From Sphingomonadales bacterium RIFCSPLOWO2_12_FULL_63_15 (lineage in GTDB: Bacteria; Pseudomonadota; Alphaproteobacteria; Sphingomonadales; Sphingomonadaceae), in assembly GCA_001829085.1 (NCBI GenBank), contig MIAK01000058.1, positions 29,930 through 93,929 of the forward strand: DNA of 64,000 nucleotides, written 5' to 3'. Shown here one piece after another: positions 9,784 through 31,102 of this stretch. The first letter of the stretch is position 1, and every line of letters starts with the position of its first letter. Under the pieces are notes generated by a model that saw nothing but the letters and a program-made list of their open reading frames with translations, did no database searches and was not told the origin of the DNA. A program made the position numbers and the translations under genes.

Positions 9784-9902
9784 CCGTTCGTGCTGAGTAG
9801 GGGCTGAGCGAAGTCGAAGACCCGTATCGAAGCATCATGCCCAGCGTCTGATCCTTCGATACGCCATTTCGACTTCGCTCAATGGCTACTCAGGACGAAC
9901 GG
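9784..9902. repeat. 119-bp nested palindromic element of the CCGTTCG...TGAGCGAAGTCGAA family
   Basis: Left arm CCGTTCG-TGC-TGAG-TAG-GGGC-TGAGCGAAGTCGAA-GACC-CGTA-TCGAA-GCA; right arm (reverse complement) CCGTTCG-TCC-TGAG-TAG-CCAT-TGAGCGAAGTCGAA-ATGG-CGTA-TCGAA-GGA. Confidence 0.9.
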
Positions 9903-12271: not shown

Positions 12272-12475
12272 ATGCCCAAGCTCAAGACCAAGAGTGGTGT
12301 GAAGAAGCGCTTCAAGTTCACCGCTTCCGGCAAGGTCAAGCACGGCGTCGCTGGCAAGCGTCACCGTCTGATCAGCCACAACGCCAAATATATTCGCCAG
12401 AACCGTGGTACTTCCGTGCTGTCCGATGCCGACGTGGCTCACGTCCGCCTCTGGGCACCCTACGGCCTCAAGTAA
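12272..12475 (+). CDS. rpmI: 50S ribosomal protein L35
   Basis: [15 protein letters not shown]...H.L; AAGGAG RBS. Confidence 0.98.
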
Positions 12476-12488
12476 GGAGTAAGGGACA

Positions 12489-12851
12489 ATGGCACGCGTC
12501 AAACGGGGTGTAACCACCCGCGCCAAGCATAAGCGGCTTCTGGTACAAGCGAAGGGCTATTATGGCCGTCGCAAGAATACCATCCGTATCGCCCGTCAGG
12601 CCGTCGAAAAGGCCGGCCAGTACGCTTACCGCGATCGCAAGGTCAAGAAGCGCAGCTTCCGTGGCCTGTGGATTCAGCGCATCAACGCGGGTGTCCGCGC
12701 TGAAGGCCTGACCTATTCGCAGTTCATGCATGGCTTGAAGCTCGCCGGTGTGCAGCTGGACCGCAAGGTTCTGGCCGACATCGCGATGCACGAAGGCGAG
12801 GCGTTCAGCGTCATCATCGCCCAAGCCAAGGCTGCCCTGCCCGCAGCCTAA
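12489..12851 (+). CDS. rplT: 50S ribosomal protein L20
   Basis: MARVKRG...YAYRDRK...LWIQRINA. Confidence 0.98.
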
Positions 12852-12874: not shown

Positions 12875-12912
12875 AAAAGGGCGCCGGGGCAGATGCTTCC
12901 GGCGCCCTTTTT
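12875..12912 (+). terminator. Rho-independent terminator after rplT
   Basis: AAAAGGGCGCCGG / CCGGCGCCCTTTTT stem followed by a T tract. Confidence 0.85.
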
Positions 12913-12934: not shown

Positions 12935-13031
12935 CCGTTCGCCCTGAGCGAAGTCGAAGGGCATCACCGAACGGAGTGAGGTGCCTTCGCTTCGCTCAGG
13001 CGGGGGCTTCGACTTCGCTCAGCCCGAACGG
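12935..13031. repeat. 97-bp four-hairpin palindromic element, copy 1
   Basis: CCGTTCG CCCTGAGCGAAGTCGAAGGG ... GGCTTCGACTTCGCTCAGCC CGAACGG; same length and layout as 19285-19381 and 27434-27530. Confidence 0.92.
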
Positions 13032-13066: not shown

Positions 13067-13681
13067 ATGTCGCTGCATCTCTGGTGGCTCTATGTCACCG
13101 CCGTCTTCCTCATCTCCGCCACGCCGGGGCCGAACATGCTGCATGTGATGACACAGAGCATTCAGCACGGCCCGCGCAAGGCGATGGCGACGATGGCGGG
13201 CCTGATGAGCGCGGTGCTGCTGTGCCTCGCCGCCTCGGCGCTGGGCCTTGGCGCGCTGCTCAAAACCTCGCCGCGCCTGTTCGACGTGCTGCGCTATGCC
13301 GGCGTCGCCTATCTCGTCTGGCTGGGGATCAAGGCCTGGCGCGCGCCGGTCGGCGCCGCCGCGGTCGCCGCACCCGCCCGTTCGCACCATGCCCTCTTTG
13401 CCACCGGCCTTTTGACCGGCCTCTCCAATCCCAAGCTCATCATCTTCGCCGCCGCGCTCTTCCCCCAGTTCATCGACACCGACCGCCCCTTCGGCATCCA
13501 GCTCGCCATCCTGGTGCTGACCTTCGTGGTGATCGAAAGTTTCTGGTACAGCGTCTATGCGCTCGGCGGCCTCCGCCTCGCCCGCTGGCTCGCCCCTGCC
13601 AACCGCCAACGCCTCTTCAACCGCGCGACCGGCGTCATGTTCATCGGCTTCGGCGGCGCGTTGCTCGGCGCGCGGGCGTAG
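13067..13681 (+). CDS. LysE/RhtB-family amino-acid exporter
   Basis: TPGPN, GVAYLVWLG and NPK motifs; about 6 TM segments. Confidence 0.88.
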   Translation: MSLHLWWLYVTAVFLISATPGPNMLHVMTQSIQHGPRKAMATMAGLMSAVLLCLAASALGLGALLKTSPRLFDVLRYAGVAYLVWLGIKAWRAPVGAAAVAAPARSHHALFATGLLTGLSNPKLIIFAAALFPQFIDTDRPFGIQLAILVLTFVVIESFWYSVYALGGLRLARWLAPANRQRLFNRATGVMFIGFGGALLGARA

Positions 13682-13697
13682 GCTAAACTTCTCACGC

Positions 13698-13772
13698 CGT
13701 CATTCCCGCCTCTTATTTAGTCATTCCCGCTCTCTATTTCCGTCATCCCCGCGAAGGCGGGGACCCATCTCC
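13698..13772 (+). repeat. Left CGTC-type REP arm (13741-13772) preceded by two tandem truncated GTCATTCCCGC copies
   Basis: CGTCATCCCCGCGAAGGCGGGGACCCATCTCC; partial units at 13699 and 13720 (period 21-22 bp). Confidence 0.9.
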
Positions 13773-13782
13773 GGGGGCCTGT

Positions 13783-14109
13783 ATGAAGCGCGAGATCAGC
13801 CCAACCGTCTATCTTCTGGCCAGTCGCAGGAACGGGGCGCTCTACACAGGGGTCACATCTGACCTTATAAAGCGACTCTATGAACACCGAAACGGCTTGA
13901 TCGAAGGCTTCACCAAAGACTACGGCATCAAACGCCTGGTCTGGTTCGAACCGCATGACAGTATGGACAGCGCCATCCTGCGGGAGAAGCGGATCAAGAA
14001 ATGGAACAGGCCGTGGAAGATCGCGCTTATCGAAGCCGGTAATCCCGACTGGGACGATCTGGCGTTGGGCTTTGGCTATGAGCCTTTGCCTACTCTGCGC
14101 TGCGACTGA
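13783..14109 (+). CDS. Stand-alone GIY-YIG nuclease (~108 aa)
   Basis: VYLLAS..NG.LYTGVT (GIY-YIG), conserved R (KRLYEH), E (REKRIK) and NP.W.DL motifs all intact. Confidence 0.92.
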   Translation: MKREISPTVYLLASRRNGALYTGVTSDLIKRLYEHRNGLIEGFTKDYGIKRLVWFEPHDSMDSAILREKRIKKWNRPWKIALIEAGNPDWDDLALGFGYEPLPTLRCD

Positions 14110-14120
14110 CCGACAGGTCG

Positions 14121-14151
14121 GGAGATGGGTTCCGCCTTCGCGGGAATGACG
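14121..14151 (-). repeat. Right CGTC-type REP arm, inverted relative to 13741-13772
   Basis: Reverse complement CGTCATTCCCGCGAAGGCGGAACCCATCTCC differs from the left arm by two substitutions and a 1-nt indel. Confidence 0.9.
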
Positions 14152-14170
14152 AGATGGTGGTGACAGGATA

Positions 14171-15265
14171 ATGATGACAGACATTAGCGCATTGAAAGCC
14201 GGGCTGATCGCCGACATCGACGCCGCCGACACGCCGGACGCGGTGGAGGCGTTGCGGGTGGGGGCGTTGGGCAAGAATGGGGTCATCACCGGCCTGCTCA
14301 AGACGCTGGGGCCGATGTCGCCGCAGGAGCGGCTGGAACAAGGCCCGCCGATTCAGGATCTGCGCGAATCCGTCACCGCCGCCATCGCCGCGCGCAAGGC
14401 GGCGCTGGAAAGCGCGGCGCTCGACGCGCGCCTGGCGTCGGAAAAGATCGACATGACCCTGCCCGCCGATCCGGCCCCGCAAGGCAGCGTCCACCCGGTC
14501 GCCCAAGTGATGGACGAACTGGCCGAAATCTTCGCCGATCTGGGCTTCTCGGTCGCCACCGGGCCGGAGATCGAGGACGACTGGCATAATTTCACCGCGC
14601 TCAACATCCCCGAAACGCATCCGGCGCGGGCAATGCACGACACCTTCTACTTCCCGGACGAGGACGGGCAGAAGCGGATGCTGCTGCGCACCCACACCTC
14701 GCCGGTGCAGATCCGCACGATGATGACGACGCCCCCGCCGATCCGCATCATCGCGCCCGGTCGCGTCTATCGCAGCGATAGCGACGCGACCCACACGCCG
14801 ATGTTCCACCAGATCGAGGGCCTCGTCATCGACAAGGGCATCACGCTCGGTCACCTGAAATGGACGCTCGAAACCTTCCTCAAGGCGTTTTTCGAGCGCG
14901 AGGATATCGTCCTGCGCCTGCGCCCCAGCTACTTCCCCTTCACCGAACCCTCGGTCGAGGTCGATGTCGGCTATACGCTCGCCAATGGCCAGCGCGTCAT
15001 CGGCGGCGACGGCGATGCGTCCGATGGCGGCTGGCTCGAAGTGCTGGGTAGCGGCATGGTCAACCGCCGCGTGATCGAAAGCTGTGGCCTCGACCCCGAC
15101 GAGTGGCAGGGCTTTGCCTTTGGCACCGGGGTCGATCGGCTCGCCATGCTCAAATATGGGATGAACGACTTGCGTGCCTTCTTCGACGGCGACCTGCGCT
15201 GGCTCAAACATTATGGCTTCTCCGCGCTCGACGTGCCCACGCTCAGCGGAGGAGTAGGCGCATGA
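14171..15265 (+). CDS. pheS: Phenylalanine--tRNA ligase alpha subunit
   Basis: [34 protein letters not shown] and FAFG.G.DRLAML motifs. Confidence 0.98.
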
Positions 15266-19284: not shown

Positions 19285-19381
19285 CCGTTCGGGCTGAGCG
19301 AAGTCGAAGCCTTCCACTGAACGCAGTGAAGTGCCTCGCCTCCGCTCGGCATGGCCCTTCGACTTCGCTCAGGGTGAACGG
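19285..19381. repeat. 97-bp four-hairpin palindromic element, copy 2
   Basis: CCGTTCG GGCTGAGCGAAGTCGAAGCC ... CCCTTCGACTTCGCTCAGGG TGAACGG. Confidence 0.92.
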
Positions 19382-25076: not shown

Positions 25077-25171
25077 CGTCATCCTGACGAAAGTCAGGAT
25101 CCATGAGCCGTTACGTCGCCCTGACGCGCAAAGCGCTGCGCCCATGGATCCCAGCTTTCGCTGGGATGACG
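25077..25171. repeat. 95-bp REPIN-like doublet of inverted CGTC REPs
   Basis: Left CGTCATCCTGAC-GAAA-GTCAGGATCCATG; right (reverse complement) CGTCATCCCAGC-GAAA-GCTGGGATCCATG; between convergent pspF and hbd. Confidence 0.9.
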
Positions 25172-27433: not shown

Positions 27434-27530
27434 CCGTTCGCCCTGAGCGAAGTCGAAGGGCTCGACCGACCGAAGGGAGGTCACTTCGCTTCGCTCAGTG
27501 AACGGCTTCGACTTCGCTCAGCCCGAACGG
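27434..27530. repeat. 97-bp four-hairpin palindromic element, copy 3 (between tolQ and tolR)
   Basis: CCGTTCG CCCTGAGCGAAGTCGAAGGG ... GGCTTCGACTTCGCTCAGCC CGAACGG. Confidence 0.92.
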
Positions 27531-31066: not shown

Positions 31067-31102
31067 CGTCATCCCCGCGAAAGCGGGGACCCATCTCCCA
31101 CC
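31067..31102 (+). repeat. Solo CGTC REP arm
   Basis: CGTCATCCCCGCGAAAGCGGGGACCCATCTCC matches 13741-13772 at 31 of 32 nt. Confidence 0.9.

Follow-up and report, generated by a model that had tools for sequence, protein, structure and literature searches.

A REP-flanked GIY-YIG nuclease gene between rplT and pheS of a Sphingobium-like genome as a probable further example of the Ssn/SRM system

Why should a minimal nuclease gene lie between two inverted repetitive extragenic palindromic (REP) sequences? This question is raised by a locus of Sphingomonadales bacterium RIFCSPLOWO2_12_FULL_63_15 (GenBank assembly GCA_001829085.1, contig MIAK01000058.1, positions 29,930 to 93,929; the whole stretch of 64,000 nucleotides is called the window below). 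The window is a Sphingobium-like chromosome segment of 65% G+C. Ahead of pheS it carries a gene for a GIY-YIG protein, with an intact REP (REP-L) on the left and an inverted, decayed copy (REP-R) on the right. The first-pass annotation had suggested that the nuclease stands in for the REP-associated tyrosine transposase (RAYT) of classical REP populations. Its coordinates and sequences for REP-L, the 108-aa open reading frame (ORF) and REP-R, together with the 10-nt and 11-nt gaps between them, are correct to the base. Our analysis indicates that the protein is very probably an Ssn-family single-stranded DNA (ssDNA) endonuclease, that the flanking REPs are its cognate Ssn-related motifs (SRMs), REPs of the CGTC-1 class, and that it would cut 5′ of their head. 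The REP-ssn-REP arrangement is one more example of the known Ssn/SRM system, described in 2025.

The repeat and the enzyme entered the literature separately. The CGTC-tagged REP super-family was defined by Di Nocera, De Gregorio and Rocco (BMC Genomics 2013; PMC3733652). Its CGTC-1 class has an unpaired CGTC head, an 8-bp stem starting with AT, a 4-nt loop and a CCA tail, and head-to-head dimers predominate. The hosts are mostly Alphaproteobacteria, S. chlorophenolicum being listed among them, and Neisseria dRS3 and Rickettsia RPE-6 are included (PMC3733652). According to that paper, CGTC REPs seem to have no transposase of their own, no tyrosine transposase being flanked by them in any species (PMC3733652). 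Chenal et al. (Nat Commun 2025; PMC11893778) took as their point of departure the dRS3/NTS repeat of Neisseria, CGTCATTCCCGCGMAVGCGGGAATCYRG, and identified ssnA, which encodes a 94-aa single-domain GIY-YIG protein (CDD cd10448), as one gene family flanked by an NTS-type motif across bacteria. A degenerate motif occurred in 71% of the ssnA homologue regions and on both sides in 42%, and in the published screen the association was found only for ssnA homologues (PMC11893778).

The biochemistry of the family is available from the same source (PMC11893778). Four homologues were purified, including a Wolbachia (alphaproteobacterial) one; they bound the hairpin in ssDNA only and cleaved a few nucleotides 5′ of the hairpin/CGTC head, much as the first-pass annotation had imagined when it proposed cutting at or near the REP hairpin; double-stranded DNA (dsDNA), RNA and the reverse strand were not acted on. 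The SsnA variants Y6A, Y17A and E64A bind but do not cut, and Neisseria SsnA activity was lost on altered stems even with the hairpin kept. In N. meningitidis, SsnA reduces the recombination of NTS-bearing transforming DNA. The NTS-ssnA-NTS unit was likened to an insertion sequence (IS) and to RAYT/REP, and domestication was proposed in the discussion (PMC11893778). The belief of the first-pass annotation that such a system was mechanistically uncharacterised is therefore outdated: the system was described and tested biochemically in 2025, and the IS/RAYT analogy was drawn there as well.

REP-L is composed of the CGTC head, the left arm ATCCCCGC, a GAAG loop, the right arm GCGGGGAC and the CCA tail extended by TCTCC. 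Its stem has 7 bp plus an A.C outer position, and its folding energy in single-stranded form is -10.3 kcal/mol (z -2.4). The head, the 4-nt loop, the CCA tail and the multi-copy occurrence agree with CGTC-1, so that the CGTC palindrome class named by the first-pass annotation corresponds to CGTC-1 of Di Nocera et al. 2013 (PMC3733652). The published SRM regular expression (regex) of Chenal et al. 2025, HGTCWYN(0-2)YYVSBRHN(0-5)WNVSBRGN(0-2)RNCYNB, matches REP-L at 13741-13768, and four positions differ from the Neisseria NTS consensus when the sequences are compared by eye. The window thus shares with Neisseria inverted flanking hairpins with a CGTC head, a ATTCCCGC-type stem and a CCA tail in many dispersed copies, and departs from it in the stem with its A.C outer pair and in a longer conserved tail (CCATCTCC). 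REP-R has lost a G of its right arm and can form only a 4-bp stem (-4.4 kcal/mol, z -0.4). Because of this 1-nt deletion, REP-R does not fit the regex, though the copy is still recognisable: the repeat search found its arms complementary to those of REP-L over 20 nt at 95% and 13 nt at 92%.

Further copies in the window, both of them already reported by the first-pass annotation, were confirmed. One is a solo REP in which the REP-L 32-mer recurs with 1 mismatch (0 expected in 100 shuffles), and the other is a diverged cargo-less doublet. Both hairpins of the doublet have perfect 8-bp stems, as is typical of CGTC-1; they are compensated and unlike REP-L, and only the copy on the minus strand fits the regex. 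The RAYT search, which covered the window only, revealed no other REP-flanked ORF there.

The protein itself points in the same direction. Its only Pfam match at E<=0.01 is GIY-YIG (PF01541; residues 8-80, E=1.1e-13); Y1_Tnp, the domain of HUH/Y1 transposases, was not matched at this threshold, and neither Pfam nor the structural model gives an extension past the catalytic domain. The AlphaFold2 model is one compact domain of GIY-YIG fold (predicted local distance difference test, pLDDT, 88.6; predicted template modelling score, pTM, 0.81), for which the best solved-structure matches are the GIY-YIG domains of 1ZG2, Slx1, UvrC-N and I-TevI. WD40 proteins (2YMU and others), which headed the sequence matches in the PDB, were rejected as artefacts of summed weak repeats, the true nearest being 1ZG2; neither the sequence nor the fold comparison with the PDB copies used gave an Ssn structure. 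The only NCBIfam match was a group I intron endonuclease model, at 13.1 bits against a cut-off of 56. For this protein, PADLOC-DB 2.0 returned 0 defence families at E<=0.01 and PHROG no match.

The family-invariant residues Y10, Y21, R31, H35, R36, E68 and N87 are all present, and Y10, Y21 and E68 do not vary across 28 relatives. The spacing of these three (11 and 47 residues) is that of SsnA Y6/Y17/E64, the equivalence being one of spacing only. The window protein and SsnA of N. meningitidis (CAX49033.1) are thus both single-domain GIY-YIG proteins of ~100 aa (108 and 94 aa, respectively), the catalytic residues of SsnA and their putative counterparts in the window protein being equally spaced. 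From architecture, motif and residue spacing, formal membership in Ssn (cd10448) appears highly likely. The nearest named protein, 96% identical, is from Sphingobium sp. SA2. The nearest solved structures, 1ZG2 and 1YWL, belong to UPF0213/YhbQ-type proteins, likewise single-domain GIY-YIG of ~100 aa, at 28% identity and E ~1e-4; to our knowledge, UPF0213 has no REP association. Chenal et al. treat cd10448 as a separate family (PMC11893778).

The pairing of gene and REP was also examined in relatives. A protein search gave 3225 of them at E <= 0.001, and a one-genome-per-species scan gave at least 573 encoding stretches, from which 80 loci (L001-L080) were kept, 78 with full flanks. These loci come from Sphingomonadales, beta-, gamma- and deltaproteobacteria, Planctomycetota, Chloroflexota, Cyanobacteria, Ignavibacteria and others, and their proteins are 53-79% identical to the window protein. 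When the upstream flank was locally aligned to the reverse complement of the downstream flank, the consensus CGTCATTCCCGCGAAAGCGGGAATCCA was recovered recurrently. Within 150 nt of the gene, 53 of the 78 loci have an SRM upstream and 49 have one downstream; 36 (46%) have it on both sides and 66 (85%) on either side, which reproduces the published linkage of 71% (42% on both sides). The remaining 600 kb of the same loci gave 0.083 matches per kb, and the enrichment that the first-pass annotation had proposed to look for in the flanks is thus ~50-fold. Paired SRMs were head-outward in 28 loci and head-inward in 5 by the regex, and in 38 and 8 by a hairpin detector. In 30/47 cases the upstream match, which does not extend to the last few nucleotides of the full repeat, lies with its end 0-18 nt ahead of the start codon, and these distances cluster at 8-18 nt. 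Beta-, gamma- and deltaproteobacteria and other phyla include relatives that have the canonical NTS sequence in their flanks; their identity to the window protein is 55-79%, and this lends indirect support to its membership in Ssn. The pairing of gene and REP is therefore systematic, beyond chance and not local.

These figures leave a mere coincidence extremely improbable. Under that explanation, REPs gather in spacers near operon ends and are spread by a RAYT or another transposase encoded elsewhere. The REPs of the window are indeed intergenic, one copy follows a terminator, and a RAYT outside the window would have escaped our search. However, a chance arrangement accounts neither for the enrichment beside ssn homologues with a preferred orientation and spacing nor for the zero expectation of the 32-mer. 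Moreover, the REP-L/REP-R pair encloses the sole REP-flanked ORF of the window, and the 2013 survey reports no CGTC-flanked tyrosine transposase in any species, S. chlorophenolicum being among the CGTC-positive ones (PMC3733652).

The repeat is conserved as a structure. In 68 distinct REP copies, picked by head and tail only so that the stem played no part in the selection, 93.8% of the stem cells pair. Two-sided stem changes occupy 49 cells, compared with 9.2 in shuffles (0/500 shuffles as high), and pairing falls to 38-52% when the partner is slid by one column. The REP hairpin is under selection. Co-variation of nuclease subclade and REP, another check proposed by the first-pass annotation, is detectable in that the nearest protein neighbour shares the stem type in 43/73 cases (31.5 +/- 4.4 permuted); it is weak in this clade, 64% of the loci sharing the canonical stem.

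Several peculiarities of these loci deserve mention. In 7/78 loci, the stop codon of ssn is a TGA within the head of the downstream repeat (…GGGAATGACG), e.g., L001 5340-5372. The database homologues P0027 and P0030 have C-terminal tails ...GDGFPxSRE (e.g., GDGFPPSRE), since the ORF reads into the downstream REP, which supplies the stop. Protein identity in the family levels off at ~60-70% at any taxonomic distance, from Alphaproteobacteria to Chloroflexota, Planctomycetota and Cyanobacteria, and the 27-nt repeat core is often identical between phyla. Two explanations fit this plateau: the ~100-aa protein, which both reads and cuts DNA, is very strongly constrained, or gene and repeat have repeatedly been transferred together between lineages. 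An Anaerolineae metagenome-assembled genome (MAG; L065, 4700-5600 and 8690-9416) has two ssn copies 4 kb apart that are 81% identical over ~730 nt. Each is embedded in arrays of direct, head-to-tail repeats, unlike the usual head-outward pair. The composite unit of these arrays, ~80 nt long, combines a REP variant with a long loop and a second hairpin (GGGTGCCCGATAAA..TCGGGCAC).

Based on the above results and the published biochemistry, we suggest the following mode of action. The window Ssn would bind the REP hairpin only in ssDNA, which could be supplied by the lagging-strand template, by incoming conjugative or transforming DNA, or by repair intermediates. Recognition would involve the stem together with the GTC immediately 5′ and the C immediately 3′ of it. 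Hydrolysis of the strand would follow, a few nucleotides away from the CGTC head on its 5′ side. Judging from the published oligonucleotide lengths, REP-L would be cut near 13737/13738 on the plus strand. The flanking repeats would be both the nearest substrates of Ssn and a relic of cassette assembly. By analogy with Neisseria, our best guess for the role in Sphingobium is the handling of REP-bearing ssDNA in conjugation, transformation, replication or repair. For the window protein, the activity on its REP variant, the cut site and any role in Sphingobium are inferred.

Some points weigh against this assignment. Membership in Ssn is deduced from shared architecture, motif and residue spacing, and the published biochemistry comes from homologues outside the sphingomonads. 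REP-L has a C at stem position 3 in addition to the A.C outer pair, and specificity for this variant has to be assumed, because stem-altered hairpins lost the activity of Neisseria SsnA. The decayed REP-R may no longer be a substrate. Finally, the transformation role known from Neisseria may fail to transfer to Sphingobium.

The surroundings of the gene are given in Table 1.

Table 1. Coordinates of the ssn-like gene, the REPs and the neighbouring features in the window
Feature	Position	Strand	Remarks
rpmI	12272-12475	+	
rplT	12489-12851	+	
rplT intrinsic terminator	12875-12911		
LysE-family exporter gene, left neighbour	13067-13681	+	Homology with ssn-less strain ends exactly at stop codon
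Two orphan 5′ half-REPs (GTCATTCCCGC)	13697-13739	+	CCGTCATTCCCGC 13697-13709, TAGTCATTCCCGC 13718-13730; from repeat search
REP-L, CGTCATCCCCGCGAAGGCGGGGACCCATCTCC	13741-13772	+	Intact CGTC-1 REP; ends 10 nt before ATG, head away from gene
G-rich, ribosome-binding-site-like run GGGGGCCTGT	13773-13782	+	In 10-nt spacer from REP-L to ATG
ssn-like gene	13783-14109	+	108-aa single-domain GIY-YIG nuclease; ATG at 13783
REP-R, reverse complement CGTCATTCCCGCGAAGGCGGAACCCATCTCC	14121-14151	-	Inverted decayed copy; starts 11 nt after stop, head away from gene
pheS, right neighbour, then pheT	14171-15265	+	Homology with ssn-less strain restarts at 14167
Cargo-less head-outward REP doublet (REPIN-like)	25077-25171		25077-25103(+) stem ATCCTGAC; 25145-25171(-) stem ATCCCAGC
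Solo REP	31067-31098	+	31/32 identical to REP-L, no cargo; directly after intrinsic-terminator-like hairpin

The G-rich run ahead of the ATG is a putative ribosome-binding site. The promoter scan found no promoter-like site for ssn, and since ssn and pheST are on the same strand and REP-R is too weak to terminate, co-transcription of ssn with pheST is probable. Among sequencing runs, this sequence turned up only in those of metagenome DNA. Apart from the rplT terminator, the sole useful nearby feature, the scans for Rfam families, tRNAs, promoters, PADLOC and PHROG models revealed nothing of relevance.

A second repeat family is present near this locus. It is a 97-nt imperfect palindrome with the termini CCGTTCG...CGAACGG and the arms CTGAGCGAAGTCGAAGGG, found at 12935-13031 (in the rplT-LysE spacer, near REP-ssn-REP), 19285-19381 and 27434-27530, with a partial copy at 9803; the three full copies are 76-87% alike. 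As ssDNA it folds at -34.3 kcal/mol (z -4.4). It resembles a MITE-type element, and no associated gene was seen. A short palindrome related to this family appears to interrupt REP-L in the locus L001.

The gene keeps the same position in several genera. Among the fetched loci, tblastn with the neighbour proteins placed the order rpmI-rplT-(lysE)-ssn-pheS, all on one strand, in 10 loci of Sphingobium, Sphingomonas, Stakelama, Citromicrobium and one unclassified Sphingomonadales MAG. The Ssn proteins are mutual nearest neighbours within genera. The ratio of nonsynonymous to synonymous substitutions (dN/dS) of ssn against its syntenic orthologues is 0.11-0.18, i.e., the window gene is under purifying selection. 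Around REP-ssn-REP in the window no target-site duplication (TSD) was found, as the first-pass annotation had said. The 35 head-outward loci examined for this agree: matching 2- to 5-nt flanks are not above chance, and the outer 25 nt show an in-register identity of 7.9 versus 6.7 in controls, with no conserved sequence beyond the CGTC head. Because the rplT-pheS slot is fixed across Sphingomonadales, dN/dS is low and there is no TSD, the window ssn looks like a long-term, vertically inherited chromosomal resident, and mobility of this copy is not favoured. Only 11 relatives occur in 2.9 million viral contigs; ssn is therefore not a phage-borne family. This conserved slot and the decayed 3′ repeat are further traits in which the window differs from the Neisseria system.

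Residence does not mean that the gene is always present. Contigs with identical RplT have the cassette in five places and lack it in two (L086 and L087). The DNA of L086 is 96.7% and 95.3% identical to the window on the two sides of the spacer, and the strains with and without the cassette share identical RplT and LysE proteins and differ there only in the spacer, so presence or absence of ssn is polymorphic between strains ~96% identical. Homology breaks off exactly at the LysE stop (13681) and is back at 14167, 4 nt before pheS. Between these points, the 485-nt REP-ssn-REP spacer of the window (13682-14166) is replaced by 145 nt (L086 3786-3930; L087 3660-3804). The L086 spacer contains a cargo-less head-outward REP doublet with the stems ATGCTGAA and ATCCTGAC, and both the spacer and the outer flanks are unrelated to those of the window. 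The comparison of the rplT-pheS locus proposed by the first-pass annotation thus succeeded in showing presence and absence, but it yielded no clean empty-site junction; the L086 allele as an excision scar or an empty target was rejected, the whole spacer having been replaced.

It might be asked whether a homing-type endonuclease gene has simply been inserted in a pre-existing REP doublet, the REPs serving as its target, as they do for some IS elements. GIY-YIG domains are found in homing endonucleases, the ssn-less allele has a cargo-less head-outward doublet in that very spacer, and the distance from the end of the upstream repeat to the ATG is usually 8-18 nt. Nevertheless, we consider this very unlikely. 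The stems, flanks and spacer of the ssn-less doublet are all unlike the window, and the position of the gene is conserved across the order. Homing endonucleases of the I-TevI type have a C-terminal DNA-binding region (NUMOD etc.), an intron or phage location and a dsDNA cut; the window gene encodes 108 aa in a single domain with no such extension and is chromosomal, and the Ssn homologues leave dsDNA uncut (PMC11893778).

The resident gene is accompanied by a large population of repeats. The exact 32-nt REP variant was found in at least 135 copies in 120 metagenome stretches, including head-outward doublets, and at no fewer than nine places in one assembly; among the copies listed, only 11 adjoin an ssn homologue. 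The homologues beside this variant represent a second, ~96-aa paralogue, 45-59% (most 52-59%) identical to the window protein, seen in L131 (659-1041, protein MAGGYVYILTNRKNG...), L106, L111, L118, L124, L126, L166, L175 and L158, the last being a more divergent ~96-aa form (45%). Where both flanks were captured (L131 and L158), a perfect head-outward pair of the exact 32-nt variant encloses the paralogue, with 12 nt between the repeat and the ATG in L131. One REP variant is thus linked to two diverged nuclease genes. The overall picture is that of one or more resident genes with a dispersed repeat population, as with RAYTs and REPINs. In the loci and repeats examined there is no direct sign that Ssn makes REP copies.

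Another unusual feature is the presence of orphan 5′ half-REPs, which consist of the CGTC head and the left stem arm without loop or right arm and form direct tandem stacks. The two of the window lie in direct orientation on the head side of REP-L, each followed by a ~10-nt T-rich spacer, with a period of 21-22 nt. Half-REPs that lie on the head side and share the orientation of the full REP number 44, where 2.3 would be expected; each of the three remaining combinations of side and orientation has 4-8. The commonest period is 19 nt, and the copied part stops at the final base of the left arm. Besides the window, stacks occur in L024, L028, L033, L038, L042, L044, L057, L061, L066, L072, L075 and L080. 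As an ssn-specific footprint they had to be rejected: in the same loci their frequency is 15% near the gene and 11% far from it, and in an independent sphingomonad REP set it is ~2%. They lie on the side on which Ssn homologues cut, and they could serve as alternative left arms for a single right arm. No mention of them was found in the passages searched of Chenal 2025 (PMC11893778) and Di Nocera 2013 (PMC3733652).

All these repeats invite a bolder explanation, in which REP-ssn-REP moves, or until recently moved, as an autonomous unit and Ssn is the enzyme, missing so far, that propagates the CGTC REPs, a hydrolytic counterpart of RAYT/REPIN. Nicks in ssDNA 5′ of a REP would lead host repair, recombination, replication or template switching to copy REPs or the cassette; new REPs, doublets and head-side half-REP stacks would result, and a REP-flanked ssn would persist as the “master” copy. 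The same hypothesis was raised by Chenal et al. 2025 (PMC11893778), and the reported lack of a transposase associated with CGTC REPs (PMC3733652) leaves room for it. We judge it unlikely. The head-outward inverted REPs of 28-38 loci have the RAYT/REPIN geometry, but they come with no TSD and nothing conserved beyond the CGTC head. The gene and a near-identical 27-nt repeat occur together in Proteobacteria, Chloroflexota, Planctomycetota, Cyanobacteria and others, and the ~96-aa paralogue of L131 has its own perfect pair of the exact 32-nt variant; the window gene, on the other hand, keeps one chromosomal slot across an order under purifying selection, and viral contigs hold just the 11 relatives. 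The polymorphism between strains ~96% identical would suit a mobile unit, were it not that the ssn-less allele has a wholly different spacer, whose junctions are those of neither an excision nor an unoccupied target. Head-outward doublets of this REP family without cargo exist and are also to be expected from copying, but in Sphingomonas and Stakelama a complete doublet is upstream of ssn and not around it, with nothing downstream. The half-REP stacks are on the head side, where homologues cut, yet they are no more frequent near ssn than far from it. Chemistry has to be considered as well. GIY-YIG enzymes hydrolyse DNA and do not form the covalent 5′-phosphotyrosine intermediate by which HUH transposases and RAYTs rejoin strands. 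Because a hydrolytic GIY-YIG enzyme cannot itself rejoin strands, any spread of REPs would depend on repair or replication by the host. No mobility event is on record.

The reading of the window protein as a resident Ssn endonuclease with cognate REPs can be set beside other hairpin-based systems. RAYT/REPIN (the REPtron) of Pseudomonas and Enterobacteria likewise has a single resident gene between inverted dispersed REPs, long vertical residence and a hairpin recognised in ssDNA; it differs in having an HUH/Y1 transposase instead of a GIY-YIG hydrolase, for which no strand-transfer chemistry is known, and a GTAG instead of a CGTC tag. The “peel and paste” elements IS200/IS605 also have subterminal hairpins acted on in ssDNA, a cut a few nucleotides away and no TSD. 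However, their hairpins are on one strand, whereas the REPs of the window are on opposite strands, and TnpA is an HUH enzyme with covalent intermediates. Di Nocera et al. 2013 found no protein associated with CGTC-1, GIY-YIG genes being outside their survey; here and in Chenal 2025, the gene is identified.

The link of a minimal GIY-YIG nuclease to CGTC REPs could be read from raw sequence alone, and the signal is therefore strong. To the published system the sphingomonads add a fixed rplT-pheS slot across an order, purifying selection and a polymorphism at ~96% identity, which Chenal 2025 does not describe. These features fit the picture of a domesticated resident with dispersed repeats known from RAYTs. 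If the propagating role of Ssn were true, a hydrolytic nuclease, and not an HUH transposase, would be driving a REP population here, which would settle what Di Nocera et al. 2013 had left to be explained about the multiplication of CGTC REPs. What keeps the locus of interest is the multiplication of CGTC REPs, a possible part of Ssn in producing the repeats that it recognises, and the side observations given above.

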